Source of the DNA: an uncultured Nitrospiraceae bacterium
Lineage (GTDB): Bacteria > Nitrospirota > UBA9217
Reading direction: 5' to 3'
Assembly (NCBI GenBank): GCA_964364055.1
Contig: CAYILT010000002.1
Location: forward strand, 1-58,026
DNA length: 58,026 bases
Shown: positions 20,117-55,461 of the stretch, piece after piece
Layout: the number at the start of each line of letters is the position of its first letter
Position numbering within the stretch: position 1 is the first letter of the stretch
Program-made: the position numbers and the translations under genes
The notes under the pieces: model-generated
The model's input: the letters and a program-made list of their open reading frames with translations, nothing else
What the model was told of the DNA's origin: nothing
Databases searched by the model: none

Positions 20117-20148
20117 AATGTACCCTTCGATTTGGTGCGGCGCGTTCG

Positions 20149-20195: not shown

Positions 20196-20210
20196 TTCGG
20201 GGAATGCGTT

Positions 20211-20839: not shown

Positions 20840-20862
20840 AGCTATCGAGCCTCCTGAACATC

Positions 20863-20891
20863 ATATTAGACTAAGACATGGACTAAGTCAA
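20863..20891 (-). promoter_or_regulatory. Sigma-70-like promoter with a candidate operator for the toxin-antitoxin pair
   Basis: Minus strand reads TTGACT - 17 nt - TAATAT. The spacer holds the direct repeat TTAGTC..TTAGTC. Confidence 0.5.
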
Positions 20892-20959
20892 GGTAGAACA
20901 GCGCCTCATCGGGCATGCCTTCCATCTGTACCCGGAAATTTAAACCAACCCGCCATTCC

Positions 20960-21416
20960 TTAATCGCCCTGCCCGTGCGGCAGCATGACAAGTTCCTCCG
21001 CATCCGAGGTGTCCGCGAATATCGACTCGTTGATAATCCTCTCGGCAATAGCATCGAGATGCTTGGTAAGCTCTTTTTCGAGTTCCTGGTATTCAGGCCA
21101 CAGTGTCCTGTTCACAAAGCCCTTTGAAACCCGTGCCATGACGGTGGTATGCCGCTGGCGATAATAGCGATAGGGCTTAATGTCGTAACGCCGCAGTAAA
21201 GCAGTGAACAGCCGTCGGGACCATTGATTATTCATGGTGAACGTGTATTCAATCGGCGGATCAGCTTCGCCGAATTGGCGAATCTTGTCCTTGATTCGCT
21301 GGCGCGCATAATCAGCGGCGGAACGTTCGCCCTCCGTACCCGCCGCCGGCGTGCAAGGCTTCGATCAATTTTAGTTTTTCGATCAGTTTGTTTACGTCAT
21401 AATTTACTTCATTCAT
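20960..21416 (-). pseudogene. Frameshifted hypothetical gene
   Basis: ATG at 21416 reads MNEVNYDVNKLIEKLKLIEALHAGGGYGGRTFRR*. The adjacent frame is open from 21364 (..AAGTEGERSAAADYARQRIKDKIRQFGEADPPIEYTFT) and runs straight into the 91-aa ORF 20960..21235. The frames switch inside a GCCGGCGGCGGG run. Confidence 0.45.
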
Positions 21417-21499
21417 GGTGAGGTCCTTTTGGTACCGCGACACGCTAAAAACGAAACATATGTCATCGGTTCGGTCCGTTCGGGGAACGGACCCTACCT

Positions 21500-25657: not shown

Positions 25658-25738
25658 ATTGTTCCATCAGGATAAATATTGTATGCACATGAGAATATAA
25701 CCGTAGGGACCGGTCCCCGAATGGTCAGAACCTTATCA

Positions 25739-26281
25739 TCAGGTTCGATAAAAGGGCTCATTAAACATTGTAGCCTTCCTGTCACGCTCGGAGATGCAGC
25801 GCGTAGGACAACTGACGCACTTGCCTGTCAGGGAATCCCATGCCTTCGCGGCCGTCGTCAGCAGGCGGTTTACCAACTCGTCGCCGATATGCGGGAAGTA
25901 CGCCTCGATGCTTCTGTAACCGAACTCAATGCTCCCGATTTTACCCGATACACGCGCCAGAACTTGCTCGCTCATCTGTTTGGCATGCTGAATGCAGAAT
26001 ACCGCAATGGCCCGGCCGTCAACGCCTTTGCTACCCAGTCGTGCATGGAGCTTCTTGTCCCGATGAATATGAGCCTCATACTCGAGCGCATATTCGAAGA
26101 GAAACCAATTGAGCTTCGTCTTTTCCGTTTCCGAATTATGGAAAGCGTCTGGGGAAATAAAACGTTCTCTGGTCACTATATTTTTCCGATATAACATGAT
26201 CAGCCGCCTCGTCGGGTCCGGAATTTCATTGAACGCGCTGTGCTTCACCGGTCCGCAGAGGCCATAAGGAGGCGTCAACAA
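25739..26281 (-). CDS. Hypothetical protein (start uncertain; alternative ATG at 26197)
   Basis: Open frame with a Cys-rich C-terminus, GKCVSCPTRCISERD. No family recognised. Confidence 0.4.
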   Translation of the reverse strand: MLTPPYGLCGPVKHSAFNEIPDPTRRLIMLYRKNIVTRERFISPDAFHNSETEKTKLNWFLFEYALEYEAHIHRDKKLHARLGSKGVDGRAIAVFCIQHAKQMSEQVLARVSGKIGSIEFGYRSIEAYFPHIGDELVNRLLTTAAKAWDSLTGKCVSCPTRCISERDRKATMFNEPFYRT

Positions 26282-26326
26282 ATTAAGGTGTCATCCTGGA
26301 GCCTCTAGTAAAAGCATTCAGGGTGG

Positions 26327-26400
26327 TTCGACAAGCTCACCACGAACGGCAAATGGCCAATGCGCGCGATTCCATATCCGTTCGTCCTGAGCTTGTCGAA
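26327..26400. repeat. REP-like imperfect palindrome
   Basis: TTCGACAAGCTCACCACGAACGG ... CCGTTCGTCCTGAGCTTGTCGAA: 23-nt arms with 2 mismatches. Confidence 0.6.
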
Positions 26401-26459
26401 GGACAGTTGCTACCTTTATTTATTGACGCTGCCTAACACGTGAATCATCTGCGCACCCG

Positions 26460-26873
26460 CTAATCCAGATAACATGCGCCGATCTCGAACGCCTGTTCGG
26501 GCGTCCCGAACCATTCGCCGCCATGGTAACAGCAGGGTTCATACCGTTCATGGCTATAGGTGTAAAACGCGACGCTCCAGCTGTCTGCGCTGAAATGCCG
26601 CAGCCGGACGAGGTGCGTAGGCGTGTTTCGCAGGCGTTCGATAAACTCCTGCCGGGTTTCAGCGCCAATGGAACGAAAGCGTTTCGGCGCAAAAGGCTCT
26701 TTGTAAGCGTCGATATAGCAGAGAGCGCCCTTGAACCTTACGTCAATCCTGGTGAACTTCCCGGCGTAATGCTTTTCCGCATATGCAGAAATTCGTTTCC
26801 TCGTTGCTTCCTGCGTGGCAGGCGGTATCTTCACCCCACCCGCGTGGGGATTGAACATCCACACCTTGCTCAT
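26460..26873 (-). CDS. Hypothetical protein
   Basis: Probable start MSKVWMFNPHAGGVKIP. No family recognised. Confidence 0.4.
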   Translation of the reverse strand: MSKVWMFNPHAGGVKIPPATQEATRKRISAYAEKHYAGKFTRIDVRFKGALCYIDAYKEPFAPKRFRSIGAETRQEFIERLRNTPTHLVRLRHFSADSWSVAFYTYSHERYEPCCYHGGEWFGTPEQAFEIGACYLD

Positions 26874-26934
26874 AAGCTTGCCTCCTCCTCGCCTCATGCG
26901 CGTTGCCGCCGGTGCGCAAACAGGACCCGTTCGT

Positions 26935-27345
26935 TCACCAGTTCACATGCCACGTGGCAAAGTCATCGAGCAGTTGGTAATCCTTTCCCTTTTCCACCCT
27001 GGTGGTCAGCCACGACAAACCCATCTCAAAGCCCCTGCCGTCCGAAAGACGCTTTACCTTCGCGAGCAAATCGTCCTCTTCCATTACGCTCGCCGATATG
27101 TCCATGAGTTGAAACTCATCGGTATGCGCCGGTCGGGATTTCTTGAGGTTTTCGTATTCCTCCTTGTCGCCCGGGCCGAACACATAGAATTCTTCCCAGG
27201 GGAAATCCTCACGGCCAGTCAGAAGAGCCTTCCGATCAAGATGCTGTAAAAGGTATTCCCTGTACTTCAACAAGTTCTGTTCCGACACTTCCGGGACCTC
27301 ATCGGTACCGAATACTTTGGCTATTCGTTTTTCATATGCGTCCAT
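26935..27345 (-). CDS. Hypothetical acidic protein
   Basis: 136 aa, ...GFEMGLSWLTTRVEKGKDYQLLDDFATWHVNW. No family named with confidence. Confidence 0.4.
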   Translation of the reverse strand: MDAYEKRIAKVFGTDEVPEVSEQNLLKYREYLLQHLDRKALLTGREDFPWEEFYVFGPGDKEEYENLKKSRPAHTDEFQLMDISASVMEEDDLLAKVKRLSDGRGFEMGLSWLTTRVEKGKDYQLLDDFATWHVNW

Positions 27346-27423
27346 TACGCTTTCCCTTTCATACTTTTATGCATCCGCTAAAACTCCCGCGGACTTTTGG
27401 GCACATTGTCCCATTTATCCGTC

Positions 27424-27509
27424 ATTCCGGCACGGTTCAAGCCGGAATCCAGTGACTTTGATTTTTCATCAGGTTGATAAAATGGATTCCCGATTAAAGC
27501 GTTCGGGAA
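27424..27509. repeat. Pair of REP-like hairpins
   Basis: ATTCCGGC-9 nt-GCCGGAAT (27424..27449) and ATTCCCG-11 nt-CGGGAAT (27486..27509). Confidence 0.55.
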
Positions 27510-27562
27510 TAACGAAACTATGCGGTAGTGTTAAGTTAACAGCCCTCATTCGCTGTTCTTAC

Positions 27563-28042
27563 TTACAAAACGACAACCGTCTCATCCCCCGCGATGTTCC
27601 GCACCTTCATGCGCAAGGGCTTTTTGACTGCGGCGATTTTTGCGTTCCAGAATTCCTTCGTCTTTTTCCCGTCCCGGATGACATATCCGTTCTTGTCGAT
27701 CTTGAGTTCCGTATCGCTTATCCAGGCGCCGACGGCATTAGTGCAATCGAGGCTGACCAGCTCAATAAGCTCCAGCCCATGTTTGCTGATTTCAATCGGC
27801 TTAAAGGGCTTTTTCTTTCTTCCGTTGCCGTTTTCCCCGTCCTCATCGCCATTCGGAGCGCCGTTTTCAACCCCTACTTGCTCCCCCTTGTCAAGGGGGA
27901 GAGTAAGAGGGGGTGAGTCGCTCAACGACTTTTTCTGATTGTATGCGTCGATAGCCTGCATCAGCCGATCGCTGACAAAAGACTTAAATTCGATTTCATA
28001 GCCGGTTTTCCTTCGCGGGATATGCCAATACCTTACGTTCAT
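27563..28042 (-). CDS. Hypothetical protein carrying an embedded palindromic repeat
   Basis: 159 aa. The central low-complexity segment SPPLTLPLDKGEQVGVENG is encoded by the hairpin CTCCCCCTTGTCAAGGGGGAG. Confidence 0.35.
   Translation of the reverse strand: MNVRYWHIPRRKTGYEIEFKSFVSDRLMQAIDAYNQKKSLSDSPPLTLPLDKGEQVGVENGAPNGDEDGENGNGRKKKPFKPIEISKHGLELIELVSLDCTNAVGAWISDTELKIDKNGYVIRDGKKTKEFWNAKIAAVKKPLRMKVRNIAGDETVVVL
27881..27917. repeat. G/C-rich palindromic element inside the hypothetical ORF
   Basis: CTCCCCCTTGTCAAGGGGGAG followed by AGTAAGAGGGGGTGAG. Confidence 0.65.
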
Positions 28043-28231
28043 GCAAGTTGCATTCGACAGCCGGAAGTCTATTCATGTTCTCCTGCCAGGCTCGTATTAT
28101 AGCAGGCCGGAAATCCGCAATATCGGTGCATAGTCTTTCATGTTTAATCTAATCCGCCGAACGCGCCGCGGAGCGCCTTGCTTAAACTTCGCAGCGCTTA
28201 TTCCCGGCTTGGTGTTAGGTCCAGGTCTTTC

Positions 28232-28681
28232 TTATCTTCCCCAGATTTCTTCAGGGTCTTCTATATTGGGATCATCATATCTTTCCATTCTCCCAAGCCA
28301 TTCCGGCATGCCATCCTTTATTCTGCATTTAAGTTGCTCAAGGGCTTCACTGGTTATTTTATTTGTTTCAAGCATAAACTGGTAAAATTTCGTCAAACTC
28401 GCGGCATTTGCTTTGATAGCTGCTTTGCTCGCCCACATCGCTTTTCGTATGAACCAATAGCCCAGAAACATGCCTATGCTGCCGACGCCCTCAGCGGCCT
28501 CAATGGTATCTTCATTTAAAAGGAACTCATTAATATAAAAATCGACGTTTGAAACATGCTTTTTTACGGTCGTACTTGAAAGCTTGCTGTCTGATAGCCA
28601 TTTTTGAAAGTGCTTTAATAAGAGCATGTTTTTTCCTCTGATTCTATTGCATTCCTTCTCATATTGTTCGTACGAACTCAT
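28232..28681 (-). CDS. Hypothetical protein
   Basis: 149-aa open frame in an AT-richer context. No family recognised. Confidence 0.4.
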   Translation of the reverse strand: MSSYEQYEKECNRIRGKNMLLLKHFQKWLSDSKLSSTTVKKHVSNVDFYINEFLLNEDTIEAAEGVGSIGMFLGYWFIRKAMWASKAAIKANAASLTKFYQFMLETNKITSEALEQLKCRIKDGMPEWLGRMERYDDPNIEDPEEIWGR

Positions 28682-29350
28682 ATTTTCCTCTCCTTACCGG
28701 CATAACGCCGCCGTGGGGAGCGCGTTTCACAGCGACCCTCACGACGCGCTTGTTAAGAATATTGCTTCTCTGGATATGGTATGCCCAGGTCTTTTGCAAT
28801 CAACTCAAAGCCTTTTTCATCTCTATATTCTTCGATATCCAGGCCGCTAGTGCGAACTTTCTGCCATGAAGAGCTTTTATCGTGGTGTTGTTTTATGTTC
28901 GAGTTTTTTCACGGACTTCCCCGGCCATTCCGAAAGCGGACATCCAGTGTTTTCGAAGTACTCTTGATGTCGGCTCCGACCCGGCATGACGGGGGAAAAA
29001 TATTAAAATACAAACACTACTTACCTTGCTTGTTGCTGGTATACTCCATTGCTTTCCCCGAAAGCTCCTCAACGCTTAAATTTTCTCAGAGCCCTTTTCT
29101 CCACTCCGTATAATCAAAGCACGTTAAAATCGAAACATACATTAGCGGTTCGGCGCGCTTGGGAAACACACCCTACGACTTCAATAATATATCGTAGGGA
29201 TCGTTCCCTGAACGGTCCGCAACGCTTCGTGATGTTTTATATTTACCTTGTCGCGGTACTATCCCGTCAGACGTCTTGAATGAAGCAGTTTATCAGACAA
29301 AATACGCTCCTGTAAATAAAATTCATCAACATTCACCGCAGCGTGCGCCG

Positions 29351-30742
29351 TCATTTGCCCTTCTCGCCTCTCACGATGAATACGGGATTCAGGGCGTTCA
29401 TCAGTTTTTTCCCCGCTACCGGCTTCGAACGCGAAACGGACACCTCGCATACGTCGGTCGTGAAACCACGTTGTTCGAGTGCGGCAACGCCGTCCCGGAG
29501 GGTTTCGAGCGTCGCGGCGTTGATCACGATGATCCCTGAACGCATCATCCCGCTCGCCAGTTCCACGATTGCCGCCAGCCTGCCGCCGCTGCCGCCGATA
29601 AAAACACGGTCCGGCGCGGGCAGGCCGGTCAGTTCCTCGGGCGCCGTCGCTTTCACGACCTCGATGTTCTTCACGCTGAACCGCCGCATGTTGTTGTTGA
29701 TGTGATTGACCTGATCTTCGTCCTTTTCCACGGCAAAGATCCGAAGACCGGGGAAAAGCCTCGCTGCCTCGATCGAGACCGAGCCGGAGCCCGCGCCGAT
29801 GTCCCAGAGCACGCCGCTCTGAGGAAGCTTCAACTTATGCAGCGTCACCGCCCGCACCTCATCTTTCGTGATCAGCCCGCGCGCATGGGACAGTTCTTCC
29901 TCTTTCAAGCCGAAACAGACCTCTCCTGGTCCCTGGACCCTGGCCCCTGGCCCCTGCCGTTGAATGATCACCACGTTCGGCTCGGCAAAGGTCATGCCTG
30001 CGGCCTCGTTGATCGTTCCCGTCCATACGCGCTCGTCAGGATATCCGAGTCGTTCGCAAACATGCATTATCATGCCGCCGGCAATCCCCCCTTGCCCCCC
30101 TTTGTCAAAGGGGGGTTGGGGGGATTTTACGATGCAGTTCAATAACTCTCCGGCAATTGCCGTCGGATTATTCACCCTGTCCGTGAGAATCGCAAGTTTG
30201 CGGTATTTTTCGAGCAGCCGGGGAATATCACCCGCTTCATAGGGCAGCTTTCGCCGCCTCGCGATATCCGGTCCGCCGTGCACGCTGATGCAGAACGCGT
30301 CGTCCCAGGGTTCGTTGATCCGGGCAAAGGCCTCCTGCATGCTCGACAGGTCGGGAATGATCTCGATCCGCTCCTTCCCGAACTCCTCGATCATGCGCCT
30401 TCCGATGCCGAAGAAGAAGGGATCGCCTGAGGCCAGGAGAACGAGAGAAGGCAGCTCGGATTGCGGAGCCTTCGACCCGAGCTCAGGCCGAGGGTTGCGG
30501 ATTGCGGATTGGGAAAACCATTCTTTGATATACGCTACAGTCTCCGGCACTTTATTGATGACCGTGATGCGTTCCTTGACCGCCTCGTATTCCTCATACC
30601 GCTTGAAGACATCAAAAAGCCGTGACGAAGCGAGGACCACGTCCGCCTTACGGACGATCTCCCGCGCCCGCCCTCCGAGCGGCCGGTATCCGATCCCGAC
30701 AAGAGTGAGTTTATTCGCTTTCGGCAATGAGCTCTCCTTCAT
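29351..30742 (-). CDS. cbiET: CbiE-CbiT fusion (cobalt-precorrin-7 C5-methyltransferase / cobalt-precorrin-6B C15-methyltransferase, decarboxylating)
   Basis: Start moved to MKESSLPKANKLTLVGIGYRP. C-terminal half has ITKDEVRAVTLHKLKLPQSGVLWDIGAGSGSVSIEAA (CbiT). Confidence 0.85.
   Translation of the reverse strand: MKESSLPKANKLTLVGIGYRPLGGRAREIVRKADVVLASSRLFDVFKRYEEYEAVKERITVINKVPETVAYIKEWFSQSAIRNPRPELGSKAPQSELPSLVLLASGDPFFFGIGRRMIEEFGKERIEIIPDLSSMQEAFARINEPWDDAFCISVHGGPDIARRRKLPYEAGDIPRLLEKYRKLAILTDRVNNPTAIAGELLNCIVKSPQPPFDKGGQGGIAGGMIMHVCERLGYPDERVWTGTINEAAGMTFAEPNVVIIQRQGPGARVQGPGEVCFGLKEEELSHARGLITKDEVRAVTLHKLKLPQSGVLWDIGAGSGSVSIEAARLFPGLRIFAVEKDEDQVNHINNNMRRFSVKNIEVVKATAPEELTGLPAPDRVFIGGSGGRLAAIVELASGMMRSGIIVINAATLETLRDGVAALEQRGFTTDVCEVSVSRSKPVAGKKLMNALNPVFIVRGEKGK
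29923..29958. repeat. Heptanucleotide tract (CCCTGG[N]-type) inside cbiET
   Basis: CTCCTGGTCCCTGGACCCTGGCCCCTGGCCCCTGCC. Encodes QGPGARVQGPGE. Confidence 0.8.
30083..30126. repeat. Nested palindromic element inside cbiET
   Basis: AATCCCCCC-TTG-CCCCCCTTTG-T-CAAAGGGGGG-TTG-GGGGGATT. Encodes KSPQPPFDKGGQGGIA. Confidence 0.75.
30455..30513. repeat. Composite 60-bp element (heptamer arms plus GAGCTC-centred core), inverted orientation, inside cbiET
   Basis: CGGATTGCGGAGCCTTCGACCCGAGCTCAGGCCGAGGGTTGCGGATTGCGGATT. Encodes IRNPRPELGSKAPQSEL. Confidence 0.9.
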
Positions 30743-31940
30743 AGGACACAAGATGGACCGAGACGGCGGTCCCCTTCGCCTCCCGTTCACAGTAGCTCCG
30801 CGCCGCGGAACAGACCTTTTTCAATGCGGAGTCCGGAGCGGGGAACGTCGAGCGGATGAAATCAAATATCTCCCGCGACGTATTGTACGATGCGTCCCCC
30901 GGCAAACCGATCCCGAGCCCGATCAGGAAATCCCTCGCGGCCTCCGCCTCCAGCGCGCCGTGGCGCACATGGGTCTGGGGCGTGGCCATGGCGATCTTGA
31001 TCATTTTTGCCCACTGGGCGCAGAGGTGCACCTTGCTGAACCCGTGTTTCGCAGCGTCGCGCAGCGAGAATTCCGTGTAGTCGCCCATCATGGCATAGGC
31101 CTCCACGGGCAGGCCGTACTTCCGCTGATGGGCTTTCTCCGACGTCCTGCCGGTGGATATCACGGCCTCGGTCAGACCGAGCGCCTTCGCCACATCGAAA
31201 GACGCCGTAATGGTCGCCGTCCAGGCCGCCTCGGAAAGCGGCCTCACGATTCCGGTGGTGCCGAGGATCGATATGCCGCCGACGATGCCGAGCCGATGAT
31301 TCAGGGTCTTTTTCGCCAGCTCTTCTCCGGCAGGAACGGAGATGGTGACTTCCAATTGCGGATTGCGGATTGCGGATTGCGGATTTGCTAAACCGAACTC
31401 AGAAACCGCTTCGCGCACCGCATCAGTAATCATCCTCCTCGGCACAGGATTAATCGCCGGTTCTCCCACGGGGATCGCGAGGCCCGGTTTGGTCACGGTC
31501 CCAACACCCTTTCCGCCACGGATTATTATTTCGGATTGCGAATTTAAATCCGCAATCCGCAATCCGAAATCCGCAATCAGAGAGGCTTCCGCCCTTATCT
31601 CCGCACCGTTCGTGATGTCCGGATCATCGCCCGCGTCCTTGATCACGGACGCCGTTGAAATCAGTTCGGAGTGGTGAGTTCGGAGTTCGGAGTGATGAAC
31701 TTTGAACTGCACCCTGCTGCCGTCCGGAAATGGTATTTCTACACTTTGCAGGAAGACGGCCCCCTCACCTCGTTCCTCTCCCTCGCTGGGGAGAGGATGA
31801 AAAACTCCCTCGCCCCTTGCGGGAGAGGGCTGGGGTGAGGGGGAAATCCGCAATAGAAGGCTCGTTGCCGCCTTTGCAGCCGCTGCCGCGCACGCGCCGG
31901 TGGTGTATCCGGACCGGAGATTCTTACTTTTCGATTCCAC
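30711..31940 (-). CDS. cbiD: Cobalt-precorrin-5B C1-methyltransferase
   Basis: LRSGYTTGACAAAAAKAA N-terminus. Several repeat-encoded inserts. Confidence 0.88.
   Translation of the reverse strand: MESKSKNLRSGYTTGACAAAAAKAATSLLLRISPSPQPSPARGEGVFHPLPSEGEERGEGAVFLQSVEIPFPDGSRVQFKVHHSELRTHHSELISTASVIKDAGDDPDITNGAEIRAEASLIADFGLRIADLNSQSEIIIRGGKGVGTVTKPGLAIPVGEPAINPVPRRMITDAVREAVSEFGLANPQSAIRNPQLEVTISVPAGEELAKKTLNHRLGIVGGISILGTTGIVRPLSEAAWTATITASFDVAKALGLTEAVISTGRTSEKAHQRKYGLPVEAYAMMGDYTEFSLRDAAKHGFSKVHLCAQWAKMIKIAMATPQTHVRHGALEAEAARDFLIGLGIGLPGDASYNTSREIFDFIRSTFPAPDSALKKVCSAARSYCEREAKGTAVSVHLVSYEGELIAESE
31355..31388. repeat. Heptanucleotide tract (ATTGCGG)x4+ inside cbiD
   Basis: Encodes NPQSAIRNPQ. 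Confidence 0.85.
31531..31578. repeat. Inverted heptamer tracts forming a palindrome inside cbiD
   Basis: CGGATTGCGAATTT|AAATCCGCAATCCG (one mismatch), then AATCCGAAATCCGCAATC. Encodes IADFGLRIADLNSQSE. Confidence 0.8.
31664..31698. repeat. Heptamer-type tract (GTTCGGA) inside cbiD
   Basis: Encodes HHSELRTHHSEL. Confidence 0.7.
31761..31842. repeat. Compound G/C-rich palindromic element inside cbiD
   Basis: Outer arms CCCCTCACC / GGTGAGGGG enclose two hairpins, CCTCTCCC..GGGGAGAGG and CTCCCTCGCC..GCGGGAGAG. Encodes SPSPQPSPARGEGVFHPLPSEGEERGEG. Confidence 0.75.
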
Positions 31941-34145: not shown

Positions 34146-34457
34146 TCAGGCGGTTGTTTTTCTTTCTCTTGTGGCTGCAGGCGCTTGTTCATGCATCAGT
34201 ATCCGCCAGTAATATCCAGCAACAAATCCCCCGGCCGCTCCCGCAATGAGAAATACGAAGAGCAGGAGATCGCCCTGGTCCGTATTGATCAATGGCTCGT
34301 GCGCTTCCCGGCCATGCTCTTTTGCGTATTTTTCAACGACCGACTCGTCGACACCCGGCCATTTTTCCGCCGCAGCGACGAGCGACGAGTGACTAACAAC
34401 AATAAATAATAGTATCAAGCAAATCCGCAATCCGCAATCCGCAATCCGCAATCTCAT
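34146..34457 (-). CDS. cbiN: Cobalt transport protein CbiN
   Basis: EKWPGVDESVVEKYAKEHGREAHEPLINTDQGDLLLFVFLIAGAAGGFVAGYYW. The N-terminus MRLRIADCGLRI is encoded by a heptamer tract. Confidence 0.85.
   Translation of the reverse strand: MRLRIADCGLRICLILLFIVVSHSSLVAAAEKWPGVDESVVEKYAKEHGREAHEPLINTDQGDLLLFVFLIAGAAGGFVAGYYWRILMHEQAPAATRERKTTA
34422..34453. repeat. Heptanucleotide tract (AATCCGC)x4.5 immediately after the cbiN start codon
   Basis: Encodes RLRIADCGLRI. Confidence 0.85.
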
Positions 34458-35221: not shown

Positions 35222-35247
35222 TTTTTCTCCTTCTATCGAGGTTTTTT

Positions 35248-35398
35248 GGAATGAACGGTATTCCGGCTCAGGGCTCAAACCTACTTGCCCGTCTTCCCAT
35301 CATGATGGCACTCATGACAGTGACTTCGTATGGGCTTTCGTTCCCTTTACGGCTGCGGGACAGCATGGGGATTTCACCCATTTCCTCTCTTTCATTCC
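35248..35398 (-). promoter_or_regulatory. Cobalt-transport leader cobalamin riboswitch (cbiMNQO leader)
   Basis: Minus-strand RNA has GGUGAAAUCCCCAUGCUGUCCCGCAGCCGUAAAGGGAACG, GUCACUG, GGGAAGA and the B12 box AGCCGGAAUACCGU. Confidence 0.8.
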
Positions 35399-35515
35399 TT
35401 TCATGAACGTTCTCACATCAAAGACCTGATGATACATGATTACTATTGTGTTTTTTTATCCGCCACCTCCTTTTCCCTCCCCTGATAATGTGTCGTGTAT
35501 TCATTCGGCATCCCG

Positions 35516-36286: not shown

Positions 36287-36311
36287 AGTATTCTCCTTTA
36301 TTCGAGGTTTT

Positions 36312-36450
36312 GGGAATGAGAGGTCTTCCGGCTCAGGGCTGCCTACTCACCCGCCTTCCCATCATGGGACTCCATGACAGTGGCTTTTGCATCGGGTTTT
36401 CGTTCCCTTCACGGCTGCGTGACAGCAGGGGAGTTGCACCCCTTTCCGCT
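36312..36450 (-). promoter_or_regulatory. Cobalamin riboswitch (leader of the outer-membrane barrel gene)
   Basis: GGUGCAACUCCCCUGCUGUCACGCAGCCGUGAAGGGAACG, GCCACUG, GGGAAGG and the B12 box AGCCGGAAGACCUC. Confidence 0.8.
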
Positions 36451-36512
36451 TCATCCTTCCCGGTTTTTATTACACAACAACCTTATGCCGCAAAATCCAC
36501 TGTTGCACTATA

Positions 36513-39530: not shown

Positions 39531-40937
39531 TTATCTACCTTCGCTTATAAAGGCTGCGAAATTGGCCGCGATACGCCGGTTGCTGCCGAAGTGCACATGG
39601 ATGTAGCTCGCAAGGGTGCCTTTATATTTGAACCCCTCATCTGACAGATGGTTGCCCGACGCGTTCGTTACGGAATAGACATTCCCCTGCCCCCCGACCC
39701 CTGACCCCTGACCCCTGCCTTCCAGTATTTCCGAATAATGGAACTCATGGCCCCGGTACTTCTCACCCTTGCTCCCCAGGATACAGTGTTCGTTCAAGAC
39801 GATTTCCCGGTAGCCCAGGCGCGGTTTCCTCATCATCCGCGTTTCGAAGGGGAACACTCCTGCCATGCCAAAGAGCGTGTTGTCAAAGTCGCGAATGCCT
39901 CTCGAAAGATACATCAATCCGCCGCATTCCGCGTACAACGGTTTGCCTGCATCGACCCATGCGCGCACGGACTCACGCATGGAGCTATTGCCCGATAGCG
40001 CGGCTGCATGAAGCTCGGGATACCCGCCTCCGATATAAACACCGTCCGCTGCGCCGGGGATGGCCGGATCGACAAGAGGACTGAACCGGATGATCTCGGC
40101 GCCTGCATCGCGAAGCAGGTCCAGGTTGTCCTCATAGTAGAAACTGAATGCCCGGTCATAGGCTACGGCAATGCGAATTGCGGATTTCGGATTGCGGATT
40201 GCGGATTGCTTTTTTGCCTGCCTGTCCCATCCCCCGGTATCCAGCGTGGCCGATTCATAGACCATATCGATGTCGATGTGCTTCAGGATCGTGTCAGCAA
40301 GCCTATCTATATTCGCCTTGGTGAGGGGGTCCTCCTCTGCGATCATAAGCCCGAGATGCCGGTGCGGGATTTCAAGGTCCATCTCTCGCGGGAGATACCC
40401 CAGAACAGGCACCGTACGAACGCTGTCTCTCAGGCGTGCAAAATGGCTCTCCGAAGCAACGCGATTGAAAATGACGCCGGCGAACTTCAATCCGCAATCC
40501 GCAACCCTCGGCCTGAGCTCGGGTCGAAGGCTCCGCACTCCGAACTCGGTAAACCCCTTCACCATTGCCCCTGCGCTCTCTGCCATGCCGTAGGCATCGA
40601 CAACAAGCACAACAGGCGCCTGCAGAAGCACCGCCAGCGACGCCGTGCTTCGGTCGCCATCGTACATCCCCATGACGCCTTCGATCACCGCAAGATCGGC
40701 ATCTGCGGCATGCCTCCTGAAGCACCGGCGCACATAGTCCTGGCCGCACATCCACAGGTCCAGATTTCTGGACGGCCTGTCCACGACAAGCCGATGCAGG
40801 CCAGCATCGATGAAGTCCGGTCCTGCTTTGAAGGGCTGGACCACAAGCCCCTTCTTCCGCAGGGCCGCCATGATGCCGAGTGACACCGTTGTCTTGCCGC
40901 ACCCGCTGTGAGTCCCCGCGATGACTATCCCGCGCAT
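39531..40937 (-). CDS. cbiA: Cobyrinic acid a,c-diamide synthase
   Basis: MRGIVIAGTHSGCGKTTVSLGIMAAL; GATase part YAECGGLMYL. Three repeat-encoded inserts. Confidence 0.88.
   Translation of the reverse strand: MRGIVIAGTHSGCGKTTVSLGIMAALRKKGLVVQPFKAGPDFIDAGLHRLVVDRPSRNLDLWMCGQDYVRRCFRRHAADADLAVIEGVMGMYDGDRSTASLAVLLQAPVVLVVDAYGMAESAGAMVKGFTEFGVRSLRPELRPRVADCGLKFAGVIFNRVASESHFARLRDSVRTVPVLGYLPREMDLEIPHRHLGLMIAEEDPLTKANIDRLADTILKHIDIDMVYESATLDTGGWDRQAKKQSAIRNPKSAIRIAVAYDRAFSFYYEDNLDLLRDAGAEIIRFSPLVDPAIPGAADGVYIGGGYPELHAAALSGNSSMRESVRAWVDAGKPLYAECGGLMYLSRGIRDFDNTLFGMAGVFPFETRMMRKPRLGYREIVLNEHCILGSKGEKYRGHEFHYSEILEGRGQGSGVGGQGNVYSVTNASGNHLSDEGFKYKGTLASYIHVHFGSNRRIAANFAAFISEGR
39684..39719. repeat. 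Heptanucleotide tract (GACCCCT-type) inside cbiA
   Basis: Encodes GRGQGSGVGGQG. Confidence 0.8.
40171..40208. repeat. Heptanucleotide tract (ATTGCGG-type) inside cbiA
   Basis: Encodes KQSAIRNPKSAIRIA. Confidence 0.85.
40488..40549. repeat. Composite 60-bp element inside cbiA
   Basis: The core GCAACCCTCGGCCTGAGCTCGGGTCGAAGGCTCCGCACTCC is identical to both cobQ copies. Encodes RSLRPELRPRVADCGL. Confidence 0.9.
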
Positions 40938-41983: not shown

Positions 41984-42978
41984 GACATTCCCCGCGCAGC
42001 AATTGCCGCCCCGGCCAGGGCAGCCGCGATTATTGCGGAGACCTTCACCAGCGCCATGGCCTCGTCCGACGCTGGAAGATAATCTTCCCGGCAGGGATCG
42101 CCGATTACGGGTTTGTTGATCAACACGCCGCTGTACACGTTGGGACCGCCGAGCGTCACGCCGATCGCTCCGGCCATGGACGCCTCGGGTACGCCGCTGT
42201 TCGGACTGGGGTGTTTCCTGCCGTCGCGCGCCATGATCGCAAGCGACCTGCGCAAAGCCGCAACGCCCTTCGCCGCGTCCTTCACGCACGCGCTCAGGAA
42301 TGCGGCCACCGCGATGATCAGGCCCGTGAGCCGCGCAGGCAGGTAGTTCGCGGCATCATCGACCCGCGCCGCGGCCCAGCCGAAATAGCGATACCGGTCG
42401 CTCTTGTACCCCACCATGGAGTCGAGCGTGTTGATGGCTTTGTAGGCCATGGCAAGAGGAAGCCCCCCGAGGGCAAGATAGAAGAGCGGCGCGACAATCC
42501 CGTCGGAAAGGTTCTCGGCCAGCGTCTCGATCGTTGCCCTGAGCACGCCCTGCTCCGAAAGTTCGCCGGTGTCTCGGCCCACGATCATGCTCACGTGCTT
42601 CCGCGCCGACTCCAGACTTCCCTCTCTGATCGAAGATATCACGAGACCGGCCGACCGAAGGAGACCATGCGTGGCGATCGTTGTTGCCGTGAGCACGACC
42701 AGCGCCGCGGTCCCGGCAAGGACGGACACCTGCTCCGAAAGACGGTTCAGCAACAGCACGATGACGCCGGTAAGGAAATAGACCGGCGCCACGATCACAA
42801 TAACCAGCACGAAGCCGGCAGTCCGCTCAGCCGCGGGAGAAGCGACTGCGCTCCGGAGTACCCTCTCCATCGTGCTGATGGCGCTGCCGATGAACCTGAC
42901 CGGATGGGGCAGCCAGCGGGGATCTCCGATCAGGAGATCGAGCACGAACGCCAGCAGCAGGACCGTCGCGCTGATCAT
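41980..42978 (-). CDS. cbiB: Adenosylcobinamide-phosphate synthase
   Basis: LLIGDPRWLPHPVRFIGSAIS; polytopic membrane protein. Confidence 0.88.
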   Translation of the reverse strand: MISATVLLLAFVLDLLIGDPRWLPHPVRFIGSAISTMERVLRSAVASPAAERTAGFVLVIVIVAPVYFLTGVIVLLLNRLSEQVSVLAGTAALVVLTATTIATHGLLRSAGLVISSIREGSLESARKHVSMIVGRDTGELSEQGVLRATIETLAENLSDGIVAPLFYLALGGLPLAMAYKAINTLDSMVGYKSDRYRYFGWAAARVDDAANYLPARLTGLIIAVAAFLSACVKDAAKGVAALRRSLAIMARDGRKHPSPNSGVPEASMAGAIGVTLGGPNVYSGVLINKPVIGDPCREDYLPASDEAMALVKVSAIIAAALAGAAIAARGMS

Positions 42979-44642
42979 AGTTTCAGCATCTCCCGGACAA
43001 AATCCATATTCACATGCTCCCGTACGACCCTGGCCAGCCGGTCCAGGGCCTGCTCCTGGAACTCGCTGTACCGTAGCCCGCTCTTGCCGGGAGGAATCCC
43101 CTTCTTTTTTCTGACGTGATCGATGATGCCCCGTCGGAACAGATCGTTGTCGAAGATCCCGTGGAGATAGGTGCCCCAGCAGTTTTTGTTCATCGAGCCG
43201 TCAAGAACAAATGCGGAGTGCGGGTAGACATGACCCTCACCCCTGCCCCTCTCCCCTGGAGGGAGAGGGAAAAAGGGAGAGGGGGCTTTTTCAACGCGGA
43301 ATGCGGAATCAACAGCCGATCTTCTCACTCTGAACAAACCAATATCTCCGGTGCTTGCACCCATGTGAATTTCGTATCCTTTTAAAATATCCTCGCTCTT
43401 CCACTCCACACTCCGCAACCCTCGGCCTGAGCTCGGGTCGAAGGCTCCGCACTCCGCACTTCCCACGATCTCCGCCTCAACGCGGCAGGTCTTCTTTTCA
43501 CTCCCGAAAAGGGTGTCGATATTCAGGAGCCCGATGCCTTCGACGCTCCGATGAACGCTCTCGGTTCCCTGCGGATCGTCGATCCGTCTGCCGAGCATCT
43601 GATAACCGCCGCAGATGCCGATGATCTCCGTTCCCCGGTCATAGGCCCTCCGGATGCAATCAACGAGCCCCTTCTCCTTCAGGAGGAGCAGATCGGTGAC
43701 CGTGTTCTTCGATCCCGGCAGGATGACCAGGTCCGCGCTCTCGATCTCCGAAGGACTGTCTGAATACACAACCTCCGTATCCGGTTCGAGCGCAAGCGGA
43801 TCAAAATCAGTAAAGTTCGAAATATACTTCAGCCTCACGATGACGATTTTTACAGTCTTTCCCTCCGCACTCCGCACTCCGCAACCCTCGGCCTGAGCTC
43901 GGGTCGAAGGCTCCGCACTCCGTGCAAGCGCCAAACCATCCTCCTCCGGAAGCCCCAGGTCCGTGATATAAGGCAGCACGCCGATCACGGGCCTGCCCGC
44001 TTTCTTCCTGATCATGTCGAGGCCGGGATCAAGGATGGTCTTGTCGCCCCGGAACTTGTTGATGATGAATGCCTTGATATGCCTGCTGTCCCGGCCGAGC
44101 AGTTTGACCGTGCCGTAGAGCGACGCGAACACGCCGCCCTTATCGATGTCCGCCACGAGCAGGACCGGCGCCTTCGCGTGCTTCGCCATGGCCATGTTCA
44201 CGATGTCCACATCCAGGAGGTTGATCTCCGCGGGGCTGCCCGCGCCTTCAAGAACGATCAGGTCATGCTGTTCCGCGAGCCGGGCGTAGGACGCGGTCAC
44301 CGCCTTCCATGCGTGGTCGCGGAACGCATAGTATTCCCGCGCCTTCATCGTGGCATGGACCTTGCCGTGGATAATGACCTGTGACCCGCCGTTGCCGGAC
44401 ACCTTGAGCAGCACGGGATTCATGTCGTTCAGAGAATCTACCCGGGCCGCCCGCGCCTGGAGCGCCTGCGCCCTGCCGATCTCTCCGCCCTCGGCGGTGA
44501 TGGAGGAGTTCAGCGCCATGTTCTGCGCCTTGAACGGCGCGACGCTGATCCCCTGATCGCTGAAAATACGACAAAGCGCCGCGACGACCAGGCTCTTGCC
44601 CGCGCCGGACCCCGTGCCCTGTATCATTAACGCCTTAGCCAC
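42975..44642 (-). CDS. cobQ: Cobyric acid synthase
   Basis: Probable GTG start giving (M)AKALMIQGTGSGAGKS. GATase part ICGGYQML. Three repeat-encoded inserts. Confidence 0.88.
   Translation of the reverse strand: MAKALMIQGTGSGAGKSLVVAALCRIFSDQGISVAPFKAQNMALNSSITAEGGEIGRAQALQARAARVDSLNDMNPVLLKVSGNGGSQVIIHGKVHATMKAREYYAFRDHAWKAVTASYARLAEQHDLIVLEGAGSPAEINLLDVDIVNMAMAKHAKAPVLLVADIDKGGVFASLYGTVKLLGRDSRHIKAFIINKFRGDKTILDPGLDMIRKKAGRPVIGVLPYITDLGLPEEDGLALARSAEPSTRAQAEGCGVRSAEGKTVKIVIVRLKYISNFTDFDPLALEPDTEVVYSDSPSEIESADLVILPGSKNTVTDLLLLKEKGLVDCIRRAYDRGTEIIGICGGYQMLGRRIDDPQGTESVHRSVEGIGLLNIDTLFGSEKKTCRVEAEIVGSAECGAFDPSSGRGLRSVEWKSEDILKGYEIHMGASTGDIGLFRVRRSAVDSAFRVEKAPSPFFPLPPGERGRGEGHVYPHSAFVLDGSMNKNCWGTYLHGIFDNDLFRRGIIDHVRKKKGIPPGKSGLRYSEFQEQALDRLARVVREHVNMDFVREMLKL
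43234..43285. repeat. G/C-rich palindromic element inside cobQ
   Basis: CCCTCACCCCTGCCCCTCTCCCCTGGAGGGAGAGGG...GGGAGAGGGGG. Encodes PSPFFPLPPGERGRGEGH. Confidence 0.7.
43402..43460. repeat. Composite 60-bp element inside cobQ (copy 2)
   Basis: Same 41-nt core. Encodes ECGAFDPSSGRGLRSVEW. Confidence 0.9.
43863..43922. repeat. Composite 60-bp element inside cobQ (copy 1)
   Basis: Same 41-nt core. Encodes SAEPSTRAQAEGCGVRSAE. Confidence 0.9.
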
Positions 44643-44730
44643 TCGACCCCCTGAGCGGAGACAACGGCACGGCAATCCCGTCCCCCGTGAATCGTCCGCA
44701 TGGTTTCGCACAGTTGATGCTGATTCACCA

Positions 44731-45831
44731 TCAGGCATCCTTCTCCGATACCCCTGCCTCGCCGAAGGTGGCCATCTCGCGGTATATCTTGACTCCCGCC
44801 TCGATCATCTGCATTGCCAGCGCCGCGCCGGTACCCTCGCCGAGCCGGAGCGAGAAATCGAGGATCGGCACCAGCCCCATCTTCCCGAGCATGGCCCGCT
44901 GCCCCTGTTCGACCGAATAATGGGCCGAGAACATATAATCCACCGTCGCAGGTTCGATCTCATAAGCGATCATGGCCCCGGCTGTGGAAATGAACCCGTC
45001 CACGATCACGGGGATCCGCTCCGCCGCCGCGCCCAGGATGAGGCCCGCAATGCCGCCGATCTCCGCTCCGCCCACCTTGGCGAGCACGTCAATAGGGTCC
45101 TTCGCATCAGGCCGGTTCAGCGCGATGCTCTCCTCAATGACCGCGACCTTCCGCTGGAGGCCTGCGTCGTCGATCCCCGTGCCCCTGCCCGTCACGTTAT
45201 TCACCGGCGCGCCGGTCAGCACCGATGCGATGGCGCTCGACGGCGTGGTGTTGCCGATGCCCATGTCGCCGGTGCCGAAAATGCGGTAGCCCTTCTGTGC
45301 GTATTCCCGGGCGAGGTCGATCCCGACTTGGAGGCACTGCTCCGCCTCGGCCCGCGTCATGGCGGGACCAATGCGCATGTTCTTCGTGCCGCGCACGACC
45401 TTTCGCGACATCAACCCGGGCGTCTCGCCGAAATCGTGATCCACACCGATGTCCACCACCACGACCTCGGCCCCGGCGTGGCGCGCCAGCACATTGATCC
45501 CCGCGCCGCCGCGCAGGAAGTTGAACACCATCTGCGGCGTGACCTCCTTGGGGAACGCTGAGACGCCGTCCGCGGTGACGCCGTGGTCTCCCACAAACGT
45601 GAAAACGACCTTTTTGTCCAGCGTCGGCATCGTGTCCCCGGTGATCGCCACGATCCTGCGCGCAAACTCCTCGAGCCTGCCGAGGCTTCCCAGCGGCTTG
45701 GTCAGGTTGTCCAGCCGCTTCTGCGCAATCTCGTAGAGCGATGATTGCACGGGTTGTATCCTGCCGCGAATGTCGCTGAACGCCTGCGCCCCGGAAGCGG
45801 TTTCTTTACCAGCTGTTCTTTCCTTATTCAT
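44731..45831 (-). CDS. cobT: Nicotinate-nucleotide:dimethylbenzimidazole phosphoribosyltransferase
   Basis: [18 protein letters not shown]...GDMGIGNTT. Confidence 0.9.
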
Positions 45832-47368: not shown

Positions 47369-47483
47369 AGATAAGCTCCTTATGATTGTGCAATATTGTA
47401 ACCGCTACGCCTTCAAAACTGCGACCTATGACAAAACCGATATTTTTTTCTTTACCATGTTTTTTCTCCTTCCGCGTGCATAT

Positions 47484-47626
47484 GGGAATAAGACGTCTCC
47501 TGGCTTAGGACAACCTACTCGCCGGCCTTCCCACCCCGATCAGGGCAGTGGCACTCGATCAGCTTTCGTTTCCATCACAGTTGCGCGACAGCAGGGGAGT
47601 CGCACCCCTTTCCGCTTTCTTATTCC
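47484..47626 (-). promoter_or_regulatory. Cobalamin riboswitch, proximal member of a tandem pair (bzaF leader)
   Basis: GGAAUAAGAAAGCGGAAAGGGGUGCGACUCCCCUGCUGUCGCGCAACUGU, GCCACUG, GGGAAGG and the B12 box AGCCAGGAGACGUC. Confidence 0.8.
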
Positions 47627-47640
47627 ACCGTACTATAAAA

Positions 47641-47680
47641 TAAATAAATCCCCGGTCTTCTACTCAAGACCGAGGATTAA
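47641..47680 (-). terminator. Intrinsic terminator (expression platform of the distal riboswitch)
   Basis: AAUCCUCGGUCUU-GAGUAG-AAGACCGGGGAUU: a 13-bp stem followed by UAUUUAUUUUAU. Confidence 0.65.
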
Positions 47681-47691
47681 AGAAACGCCTT

Positions 47692-47893
47692 AACCCACAC
47701 ATGATCTTAACGCCGAAGAATGTGCGAAATTGTTCAAGCAGGTCTTCTGGCTCTCCCCCCCCTTTACCGGCCTTCCCAGCCAGAACACCGGCCAGTGGCG
47801 CAATTTGTAGTAAAGAGTTCGACCCCATAGTGCAGGGTCAGGATTACAGCGGCGGGTCCGCTCCCGATTTTAACGGGATTCCCTTAGCTTGAA
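47692..47893 (-). promoter_or_regulatory. Cobalamin riboswitch, distal member of the tandem pair
   Basis: AAGGGAAUCCCGUUAAAAUCGGGAGCGGACCCGCCGCUGUAA, GCCACUGG, GGGAAGG and the B12 box AGCCAGAAGACCUGC. Its 3' part is near-identical to the btuF riboswitch. Confidence 0.8.
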
Positions 47894-47980
47894 TGTGAAA
47901 CTGTTATATATGCTTTTTTTATACCACGTGCGTCATGCAAAGTCAATTCACTTTCTTTGGGGGCCTCATAGGTATAATTA

Positions 47981-54202: not shown

Positions 54203-55023
54203 GCTGCCAGCTCCTCTATTCCTTGAATGATGCGCGGCGCCAGGCGGTACAAGTTGTCGCTCACATAACAGACCTTTCCGTTCTTTACCGCCGGAACGGT
54301 CGCGAGCTTCTTGAGTATGCCCTGCGAGACGGTCCGGATGTCCATCCCCGCGCCCTTGCCTATGATCAGCGCGTCAGGCGACGCGCGGATGAGTTCTTCG
54401 ATGGAATAGCGGGGATAGGATGACGGTGCATGGCCAGCGACATTCACCAGGCCCAGCAGCGTAATGGCGTCGTGGATCGCCGTGCCCGGCCCCGCAACGA
54501 GCAGCGGCTCCGGCCAGACGATGTACACAACCTTTTTCTGGCTTCTGTCTTCTGACTTCTGGCTTCTGTATTTATTAATTCCCTCTTCCATCTCTCTCGC
54601 CAGCTTCTCGCCGCTTTCCTTTACTCCCATCGCAACAGCCAGTTCGCGGATCGCCGCGGGCAGTTCAGCAAGCGTCCGTGCGGTCCAGACATAGGTCTTG
54701 AGCGACATGCCCCGGAGCCGGTCATCGACCTCCCGGGGGTTCCCGTCGGTCGTCATGACGACGATGTCGGGCTTGAGCCCGACGATCGCCTCGAGCGATG
54801 GGTTCGACATCCCGCCGATCTTCGCCTTTTTCTTCGCTTCAGGAGGATGGTCGCAGAAGCTCGTCACCCCGGCGATCCGGTCGCCGAGCCCGAGCGCGAA
54901 CAGGATCTCCGTCGTTGCCGGGGAAAGAGAGATGATCCGCGTCGGAACGGGGACCGGTTCAGCGGCAAATGCACGTAGAGAAAACGCTATGAGGAAAAAA
55001 AGAATAATGAATGTTCTTTGCAT
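54190..55023 (-). CDS. btuF: Periplasmic corrinoid-binding protein
   Basis: Start moved to MQRTFIILFFLIAFSLRAFA. RIISLSPATTEILFALGLGDRIAGVT. Preceded by a riboswitch. Confidence 0.82.
   Translation of the reverse strand: MQRTFIILFFLIAFSLRAFAAEPVPVPTRIISLSPATTEILFALGLGDRIAGVTSFCDHPPEAKKKAKIGGMSNPSLEAIVGLKPDIVVMTTDGNPREVDDRLRGMSLKTYVWTARTLAELPAAIRELAVAMGVKESGEKLAREMEEGINKYRSQKSEDRSQKKVVYIVWPEPLLVAGPGTAIHDAITLLGLVNVAGHAPSSYPRYSIEELIRASPDALIIGKGAGMDIRTVSQGILKKLATVPAVKNGKVCYVSDNLYRLAPRIIQGIEELAACVR
54536..54568. repeat. Heptanucleotide tract (CTTCTG[R]) inside btuF
   Basis: Encodes RSQKSEDRSQKK. Confidence 0.8.
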
Positions 55024-55142: not shown

Positions 55143-55350
55143 TAACCCACACATGATCTTAACGCCGAAGACTGTGCGAGAAACATCCGGGTAGGTTTTC
55201 TGGCTCTCCCTCATCTGCCGTCCTTCCCATCCCGATGGTTCGGGACAGTGGATACTGGCTGGCAGATGCGTTGACCCTGCTTCCTGCAGGGCCGGGATCA
55301 CAGCGGCGGGTCCGCTCCCGATTTACACGGGATTCCCTTCGCCTGGATGT
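55143..55350 (-). promoter_or_regulatory. Cobalamin riboswitch (btuFCD leader)
   Basis: AAGGGAAUCCCGUGUAAAUCGGGAGCGGACCCGCCGCUGUGA, CCACUGU, GGGAAGG and the B12 box AGCCAGAAAACCUAC. Confidence 0.85.
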
Positions 55351-55461
55351 GTTCGGTATGTAGTTGTGCCTGCTTTATACCACGCCGCGTAGATAAAGTC
55401 AAAAACTATCCGCACGGGATACTGTCGCCTCAATGGATTCGCCTGTCCCCTTGTCAGCAGT

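Follow-up and report, generated by a model that had tools for sequence, protein, structure and literature searches.

The stretch of DNA analysed here (the window) comprises 58,026 nucleotides (nt), positions 1 to 58,026 of contig CAYILT010000002.1, from an uncultured Nitrospiraceae bacterium (assembly GCA_964364055.1). Three of its cobalamin genes, cobQ, cbiA and cbiET, contain copies of a short imperfect palindrome set within tandem heptamer repeats (Table 1), and this palindrome, referred to below as the element, is the subject of the present analysis. A core of 41 nt, GCAACCCTCGGCCTGAGCTCGGGTCGAAGGCTCCGCACTCC, was found without mismatches on the plus strand at 43415-43455, 43881-43921 and 40501-40541, and a fourth copy with one mismatch on the minus strand at 30458-30498, while 100 dinucleotide-preserving shuffles gave no core match at all. 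The core forms an imperfect palindrome with GAGCTC in its centre, and all four copies are bordered by the heptamers ACTCCGC or AATCCGC. Two copies are located in cobQ, one in cbiA and one, inverted, in cbiET, and every host open reading frame (ORF) is intact. Together the copies use four frames, three on one strand and one on the other. The translations around them read ...ARSAEPSTRAQAEGCGVRSAEGK... and ...GSAECGAFDPSSGRGLRSVEWK... in CobQ, ...EFGVRSLRPELRPRVADCGL... in CbiA, and ...SAIRNPRPELGSKAPQSEL... in CbiET. Read directly, the 41-mer has five open frames out of six, and TGA closes the remaining one, a forward frame. In these respects an earlier interpretation made from the letters of the stretch (the sequence-only reading) was correct: it had described an identical 41-nt core in two cobQ copies, translated in different frames with the ORF preserved, a third copy in the third frame in cbiA, an inverted fourth in cbiET, the palindrome on GAGCTC with flanks of the ACTCCGC type, and at least four frames free of stop codons.

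What that reading had taken as the unit, a composite of 60 bp, was not retained after comparison with related bacteria. Loci of the relatives L003, L004 and L006/L007 were aligned as DNA to the window; overall, L003 and L004 are 85-87% identical to it at the nucleotide level. In the protein database the nearest relatives of CobQ have identities of 81-89% and decrease stepwise in length, from 550 through 532 and 514-517 to 501-506 amino acids (aa). At the site in the GATase domain the window reads GGAGTGCGGAG, CCTTCGACCCGAGCTCAGGCCGAGGGT and TGCGGAGTG in succession, and both L003 and L004 read GAGTGCGGAG followed directly by TGCGGAGTG, which is exactly 27 nt fewer, with unambiguous boundaries and no target duplication. 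The site in the interdomain linker differs from L004 likewise by exactly 27 nt, again with no duplication. In L003 the CbiA site is occupied by a degenerate heptamer array from which the element is absent, and in L006 the CbiET site lacks array and element both, a difference of 48 nt. In L001 the cbiET element occupies the same site, as it does in L003, where it is at the cut end of the locus; cbiET of the window is 70.6% identical to that of L001, yet the 27-mer is identical in 27 of 27 positions. The alignments identify the unit as the 27-mer ACCCTCGGCCTGAGCTCGGGTCGAAGG (plus strand), i.e., A + CCCTCGGCCTGAGCTCGGGTCGAAGG, apparently inserted at GCA^CTCC of a pre-existing array. The array is not counted as part of the insert, because relatives carry arrays without the element and the element occurs without arrays elsewhere. 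The 60-bp composite is thus better described as two layers, a 27-nt hairpin inside an older heptamer array.

To judge from the alignments, the heptamer arrays predate the insert. Most of 120 CobQ orthologues from the clade carry array-encoded peptides at the same three sites, with varying unit sequences, such as SAECGVRSAEW at the GATase-domain site, or NADFGFRNAEW, GFRGQGPG, SEVRSQKSE and SAIRNPQSE, and in several of the orthologues other small inserts interrupt the arrays. Each 7-nt unit moves the codon phase by +1 (7 = 1 mod 3). The occurrence of equivalent insertion points in different frames follows from this periodicity, so that the reading of the same DNA in two frames of cobQ requires no special coding property. 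The insert leaves the ORF unbroken since it is nine codons long and open in five of six frames. We regard it as very probable that the segments are insertions and not ancestral sequence, as orthologues at 81-89% identity are precisely without them.

Both CobQ and CbiA are functional, because the ratios of nonsynonymous to synonymous substitution rates (dN/dS) relative to the related sequences are 0.15-0.28 for CobQ and 0.17-0.30 for CbiA, which corresponds to purifying selection. The suggestion that the element is tolerated within enzymes agrees with this, as well as with the in-frame position of the copies and the intact ORFs. An AlphaFold2 model of CobQ based on the 120-sequence alignment had a mean predicted local distance difference test score (pLDDT) of 79.4 and a predicted template modelling score (pTM) of 0.84; it replaced an earlier model from 14 close homologues, which at a pLDDT of 49.8 was unusable. 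Segments with pLDDT below 50 include residues 229-254, 393-409 and 440-469. The three array/insert sites, residues 235-257, 389-409 and 437-473, coincide with these three loops of low confidence in the model, and two of the three hold the two copies of the element. The linker site also falls between the two Pfam domains of CobQ. In the Cbi enzymes the arrays occupy a linker and loops, the latter being of low confidence in the CobQ prediction; no full-length CobQ structure was found in the Protein Data Bank (PDB). We infer that the inserts are translated simply as loop extensions of nine residues, and that they have no function in the enzymes but are selfish DNA, either neutral or slightly deleterious.

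Table 1. Hairpin copies, their host arrays and genes, and a further insert in the window.
Feature	Position	Strand	Description and basis
27-nt hairpin, copy 1 (ACCCTCGGCCTGAGCTCGGGTCGAAGG)	43884..43910	+	CobQ interdomain linker; encodes PSTRAQAEG on the gene's minus strand; exact match; empty site: orthologue L004, same heptamer array minus exactly these 27 nt
27-nt hairpin, copy 2	43418..43444	+	Loop of CobQ GATase domain; encodes GAFDPSSGR; exact match; empty site: L003 and L004 carry array GGAGTGCGGAG^TGCGGAG without the 27 nt
27-nt hairpin, copy 3	40504..40530	+	CbiA/CobB; encodes SLRPELRPR; exact match
27-nt hairpin, copy 4	30469..30495	-	CbiET, inverted relative to gene; encodes NPRPELGSK; exact match
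ACTCCGC array hosting copy 1	43861..43926	+	Halves 43861-43883 and 43911-43926; tandem/direct-repeat output; orthologous array intact in L004
ACTCCGC array hosting copy 2	43402..43460	+	Halves 43402-43417 and 43445-43460; repeat output and alignment
Mixed AATCCGC/ACTCCGC array hosting copy 3	40488..40546	+	Repeat output and alignment
AATCCGC array hosting copy 4	30452..30511	-	Repeat output and alignment
CobQ ORF (cobyric acid synthase)	42975-44738	-	Pfam CbiA/AAA_26 and GATase_3
cobQ, start as in database protein P0001	42975..44627	-	550 aa; three heptamer arrays, two copies of the 27-nt element, one 69-nt insert
cbiA/cobB (cobyrinic acid a,c-diamide synthase)	39531-40937	-	Pfam; alignment
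CbiET ORF (fused precorrin methylase/decarboxylase)	29351-30790 (gene listed 29351..30742)	-	Pfam TP_methylase and methyltransferase domains; alignment to L006
69-nt hairpin insert in third CobQ array	43224..43292	-	Encodes ..EKAPSPFFPLPPGERGRGEGHVY../..PSPFFPLPPGERGRGEG..; present in window and L003, absent from L004, L006 and L007

Occurrence of the element across phyla

A genome scan with an exact 32-nt sequence returned one related metagenome-assembled genome (MAG) only and was too specific; hence the degenerate 26-mer CCYTCGRCCYGAGCTCRGGYCGARGG was used, which carries about 46 bits and for which about 0.02 chance matches were estimated in the 596-Gb genome set. It gave at least 120 metagenome stretches and at least 118 stretches from species-representative genomes, values that are lower bounds and not a census. 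The genome matches listed come from about 12 phyla at least, and the hosts are mostly uncultured anaerobes. The phyla are Nitrospirota, Thermodesulfobacteriota/"Deltaproteobacteria", Bdellovibrionota, Chloroflexota, Planctomycetota, Methylomirabilota, Bacteroidota/Ignavibacteriales, Patescibacteria, Verrucomicrobiota, Nitrospinota, Tectomicrobia, and Cyanobacteriota. Among the 244 matches listed, 144 have exactly the 26-mer of the window, 68 have T replaced by C at one stem position, and 18 represent a third variant. A C/A mismatch and a U.G position are retained in nearly all of these copies. Conservation of the flanks ends at the edges of the element, except for C at position +1 (91% of the copies listed). 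The subfamilies breed true, with 57 copies of A+26, 59 of C+26 and 52 of a G-flanked 26-mer among the listed matches.

Pairs of empty and filled sites were found also in unrelated repeats, and they differ by exactly 27 nt for the T variant or 26 nt for the C variant. The element was observed in other heptamer arrays, e.g., GAACTTT cut at GAA^CTTT, and in the middle of related hairpins (...CTGAG^CTCAG..., cut at GAG^C), where the resulting composites amplify as units. About 95% of 212 sampled contexts had no heptamer flanks. Insertion is 5' of C, usually at A/G^CT, and the orientation is fixed relative to the ACTCCGC arrays. ORFs of at least 200 codons contain 31% of the copies listed, compared to 73% of the control positions; the family is thus depleted from genes, but far from excluded. 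The strand with the stronger hairpin is antisense in 31 of the in-gene copies and sense in 13, which is not significantly off the expectation given one closed frame. In the GluRS of a Dehalococcoidia MAG the element corresponds to an exact 9-residue gap relative to the solved structure 4gri_A. Other copies within genes were found in PolA of a Jacksonbacteria MAG, in an aconitase-like enzyme, and at the C-termini of GlmU and MurC. The proposal of an undescribed family in a cobalamin cluster therefore stands in its first part, since neither an Rfam model nor a literature match was obtained, but not in its second: the family is not specific to the cluster and occurs in about 12 phyla and in unrelated genes.

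Several individual loci deserve mention. In the MAG to which L001 belongs, the element is placed in a heptamer array within a large NifE/NifN-like fusion ORF (L143, 2288-2339; ..SAEGGAFDPSSGRGLRSAD..), and this lineage thereby has in-gene copies outside its cobalamin genes. Plasmid pAQ6 (L245, 65085-65169) of Picosynechococcus sp. PCC 7002, which is cultured and genetically tractable, carries a diverged form of the core, CTCTCGGCCTGAGCTCGAGTCAAAGG, enclosed by related hairpins in two levels of nesting; this copy is intergenic and is present in strain PCC 7117 as well. The plasmid collection, assumed to include plasmids of Nostoc, gave no strong match, and its sole match was that in Picosynechococcus, at 87%. 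The scan of 2.9 million viral contigs gave no matches. In MAGs of Bdellovibrionota (L128, 6651-7669; L193, L191, L226 and L080) there are many repeats of the composite CTTCGGCCGTGAGCT-A[26]-CAGCCGAACGG, and two of the composite copies flank a fragment of an IS91-like (Y2 HUH) transposase, the sole recurrent mobility gene near copies.

Mode of spread and alternative explanations

We consider the element to be a very small non-autonomous mobile hairpin, a 27-nt imperfect palindrome, and hold true mobility, rather than mere conversion, to be likely. Copies of the 27-mer would enter existing arrays at a fixed position, GCA^CTCC (5' of C), with no target-site duplication, and copying would take place in trans, by machinery not encoded nearby, which probably recognises the element as a folded single strand. 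Folded as RNA, the element reached -14.7 kcal/mol (z = -2.3) on one strand, with two G.U pairs, and -11.1 kcal/mol on the other. Folded as DNA, neither strand was better than shuffled sequence. An RNA intermediate is tentatively preferred, and only somewhat, to a DNA intermediate, because conservation of the two G.U positions and of one C/A mismatch is restricted to a single strand; neither of the two is probable in itself, and a large part of our estimate is assigned to neither.

Neither a transposase nor a reverse transcriptase was found in the 58-kb window. The IS91-like transposase was seen near copies at five Bdellovibrionota loci only, among 237 loci, and the other ORF clusters near copies are ubiquitous families, e.g., ABC transporter ATPases and histidine kinases. 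Rfam 15 covariance models gave no match at the element, in the window or at eight loci, even at E-values of 1-10. Searches of literature text with sub-strings of the element were without a match, and a literature search for heptamer repeats in Nitrospirota returned nothing relevant. A hammerhead-like or k-turn interpretation of CUGAGC...CGAAGG was rejected by eye, as the conserved positions are unsuited. An origin as a fragment of rRNA, tRNA, tmRNA, signal recognition particle (SRP) RNA or RNase P RNA, which would account for the identity across phyla, seems unlikely; there was no Rfam match, and no resemblance is known.

The four copies of the window could also have spread from one heptamer array to another by template switching or homologous gene conversion, without dedicated transposition. 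One array would have gained the 27-mer, and heptamer homology of 14-20 nt on each side would have carried it into the others. All copies in the window have the same phase and relative orientation within the (A/C)(A/C)TCCGC arrays, they have in common 41 identical nt, which include flanking heptamer bases, and in AATCCGC arrays, too, CTCCGCA follows the element as the first unit on its right, as expected of a co-converted flank. The cbiET copy, fully conserved between lineages in a gene that has diverged, fits conversion too. Conversion does not account, however, for the copies free of heptamers, which make up nearly all of the sampled contexts, for the exact 26/27-nt pairs of empty and filled sites in unrelated hairpins, for the presence in about 12 phyla, or for insertion at the same point, A^CT, in arrays of an unrelated type, e.g., GAACTTT. 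As a substitute for transposition we regard it as unlikely; it is at best a secondary route, and array-to-array conversion may have added to the spread within this genome. Much less probable is a functional cis-element selected in B12 genes for translation, mRNA stability or cobalamin-dependent control. It would suit the position of four copies within 14 kb of a cobalamin operon with six cobalamin riboswitches, the conservation of the sequence next to diverging flanks, and the stable RNA hairpin on one strand. Close relatives with the same operon are, however, without three of the four copies, the mRNA strand is the weaker-folding one in three of four copies, and no Rfam family was matched; the same element is also found in GluRS, PolA, MurC, GlmU, an aconitase-like gene and intergenic repeats of other phyla, and is depleted from ORFs overall.

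That the segments are removed before or after translation, as a mini-intron or in an intein-like manner, leaving mature enzymes without them, was raised as a possibility by the sequence-only reading and would render insertion into enzymes harmless, but it has no direct support and we give it slightly less credence still. All indels seen within genes have lengths divisible by three (27, 27, 27, 48 and 69 nt, and also 27 nt in L006, L007 and GluRS) and contain no stop in the frame that is read, and such lengths would be needless if the segment was spliced out. No ribozyme family was matched, and the inserts are in predicted disordered loops, where extra residues would be tolerable. To our knowledge, 27 nt is far below the size of any self-splicing RNA or intein. 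An artefact of assembly or a chimera, or an ancestral loop sequence specific to the lineage, is hardly credible. The contig is of metagenome type, repeats can mislead assemblers, and many database matches are at contig ends; a high-copy repeat produces just such contig-end matches, however, and three assemblies made independently agree on the site of the cbiET copy, namely those of the window, of L001 (one MAG) and of L003 (another sample). Long ORFs are intact at all copies, the matches come from different assemblers and projects, and the precise absence from close orthologues speaks against an ancestral loop.

Several points weigh against mobility of the hairpin as we propose it, or against parts of the proposal. 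No mobilising enzyme was identified: clustering of 2571 ORFs around the 237 loci gave no recurrent neighbour except the IS91-like one. The proposal does not account for the identity of a 26-27-nt sequence across phyla. The viral contigs gave no match. The flanking heptamer bases shared by the four window copies, and the unit CTCCGCA at the right-hand side, fit co-conversion as well as insertion, and from context to context the boundary of the insertion is uncertain by 1 nt. The argument for RNA over DNA draws only on folding energies and conserved wobble positions, translation of the inserts only on intact ORFs and lengths in multiples of three, and copy numbers and taxon range are minimum values. 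Taken in all its parts, the proposal would describe the smallest known element, an active, cross-phylum and self-nesting hairpin of 26-27 nt, moving through a single-stranded, probably RNA, intermediate by means of widespread and possibly host-encoded machinery, using heptamer arrays as preferred landing pads, and continually remodelling surface loops of CobQ, GluRS, PolA and others in uncultured bacteria. That all of these parts hold together is doubtful, and we put the combination forward as a speculation.

If the element is mobile as proposed, mobile DNA would reach down to 27 nt well beyond one cyanobacterial family. A single short sequence would persist unchanged in about 12 phyla, which calls either for a vector not yet described or for a mobilising activity that very different bacteria have in common. 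The element would be a concrete source of loop insertions in essential enzymes. It would also be a source of spurious "low-complexity" metagenomic peptides, AFDPSSGRG, PSTRAQAEG and SLRPELRPR, which annotators and structure predictors should recognise. With heptamer arrays paired with tiny hairpins, the role of bacterial heptamer repeats as insertion targets, long an open matter, becomes a testable question.

Other arrays and inserts in the cobalamin genes

About 24 sites in the window have tandem heptamer arrays, most often about 32 nt long (4.5 units), e.g., at 16195-16226, 16653-16685, 17043-17074, 29925-29956, 31355-31385, 31547-31573, 34422-34453, 39691-39717, 40177-40209 and 54536-54568. 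Unit types are ACTCCGC, AATCCGC, CCCCTGA, CTTCTGA and CCTGGCC. Nearly all arrays are within or at the ends of cbi/btu genes, and the hydrogenase, SNF2 helicase and bza genes of the window have none. Across the whole lineage the cbi genes are peppered with heptamer arrays and mini-inserts. The different units of orthologous arrays in relatives suggest concerted evolution or replacement, as far as the alignments go.

The 69-nt insert in the third CobQ array has a hairpin, CCCTCTCCC..GGGGAGAGGG..GGGGTGAGGG, that differs from the 27-nt element. A second family of 27-nt hairpins, CCTGCCCTCGAATG-N7-TCGGGGG, has conserved stems and differing loops; it was found in the CobQ linker of L006 (about 10742-10768) and at CbiX-CbiC in L007 (about 9086-9112), inserted after GGAG^ of heptamer units, i.e., at the same heptamer position as the element of the window. 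At the L006 site the polarity of the array is inverted across the insert. The CbiET of the window holds in addition a nested palindrome of 48 nt, AAAATCCCCCCAACCCCCCTTTGACAAAGGGGGGCAAGGGGGGATT, at 30081-30128, and a 94% identical copy adjoins a heptamer array in the CbiA of L004 (13983-14030). These 48-nt palindromes, which are translated into peptides of the PPFDKGGQGG type, make up one more family of mini-inserts within genes.

Six cobalamin riboswitch aptamers (RF00174, 65-79 bits) are located on the minus strand at 14594-14749, 35238-35430, 36301-36502, 47477-47660, 47720-47907 and 55173-55361, including a tandem pair upstream of ThiC-like/bza genes, and they account for the direct-repeat families D2-D5, D8, D9, D11 and D13 of the window. 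Between genes of the cbiG/H/L type and cbiET there are about 10 kb (approximately 19300-29300) with a SWIM-domain protein, a 1385-aa helicase of the SNF2 family (21500-25657) and ORFs without Pfam match. L001 has the genes on both sides directly joined, and the segment looks like an inserted island.

Relation to known repeat systems

The sequence-only reading had compared the element with the Rickettsia palindromic elements (RPEs). These are about 100-150 bp long, are known only from Rickettsia and close relatives, and are not known to be tied to heptamer arrays. In the work of Ogata and colleagues from 2000 they are said to be palindromic repeats inserted in frame in coding genes, presumably translated, and tolerated in surface regions. 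The analogy is fair with regard to in-frame palindromic insertion into protein genes with preservation of the ORF. The element is not an RPE, however: it is 27 nt long, its hosts are Nitrospirota and about 11 other phyla, and its sequence is unrelated.

Repetitive extragenic palindromic (REP) sequences and REPINs are mobilised by RAYT (TnpA_REP) HUH transposases (PMC3116915), and IS200/IS605-type elements transpose as single strands (PMC6006769). The element resembles them as a short imperfect palindrome (20-40 nt) that is non-autonomous and makes no target duplication. If the element, as in these systems, was recognised as a folded single strand and inserted beside a short specific sequence, its A^C(T) target and its conserved mismatches would agree with this as well. 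REPs, however, are extragenic, species-specific, and usually arranged as inverted doublets, and the cognate RAYT gene has REPs on both sides. The copies and neighbourhoods covered here did not show these features. Nearly a third (31%) of the element copies are in open frames of at least 200 codons, several of them in verified genes, and they are single copies without regular doublets. The search for RAYT/HUH genes found none in the 58-kb window and, in the neighbourhoods of the 237 loci, only the IS91-like gene in five. Miniature inverted-repeat transposable elements (MITEs) have terminal inverted repeats, produce a target duplication and are about 50-500 bp in size, whereas the element has 27 nt and no duplication at any pair of empty and filled sites. 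Bacterial tandem heptamers are known from the short tandemly repeated repetitive (STRR) sequences of cyanobacteria and the GGGNATC repeats of Xanthomonas and Nostoc (PMC4692102). The arrays of the window are similar to the published ones in being 7-nt tandems with a preferred length of about 4-4.5 units, but different in that nearly all are inside or at the ends of genes, the units are not G-tracts, and they serve as insertion sites.

By analogy, the closest described kind appears to be the small dispersed repeats (SDRs) of Nostocaceae, with which the element would share behaviour, while it differs from them in host range and in its in-frame habit in essential enzymes, and perhaps in sequence. 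SDR1-8 of Nostoc punctiforme and relatives, in the account of Elhai and co-workers from 2008, are reportedly 21-27 nt in length, hairpin-forming, embedded in heptamer repeats and self-nesting. They are also said to differ in presence and absence between relatives and to have no linked transposase. Similar to this description, the element is a dispersed unit of 26-27 nt with sharp edges that folds into a stable RNA hairpin (-14.7 kcal/mol), it is nested and its composites are amplified, and empty orthologous sites exist in L003, L004 and L006. According to a passage in one source, SDR5 inserts between nt 3 and 4 of HIP1 (PMC4390886); the element likewise takes a fixed position, GCA^CTCC where the array consists of ACTCCGC, GAA^CTTT where it consists of GAACTTT, and GAG^C in the middle of hairpins. 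A passage in another source reports SDRs in Nostocaceae only (PMC5861425). The element, in contrast, is found in about 12 phyla, mostly in uncultured anaerobes, with one exact sequence common across phyla, and many of its copies are in frame inside housekeeping genes.

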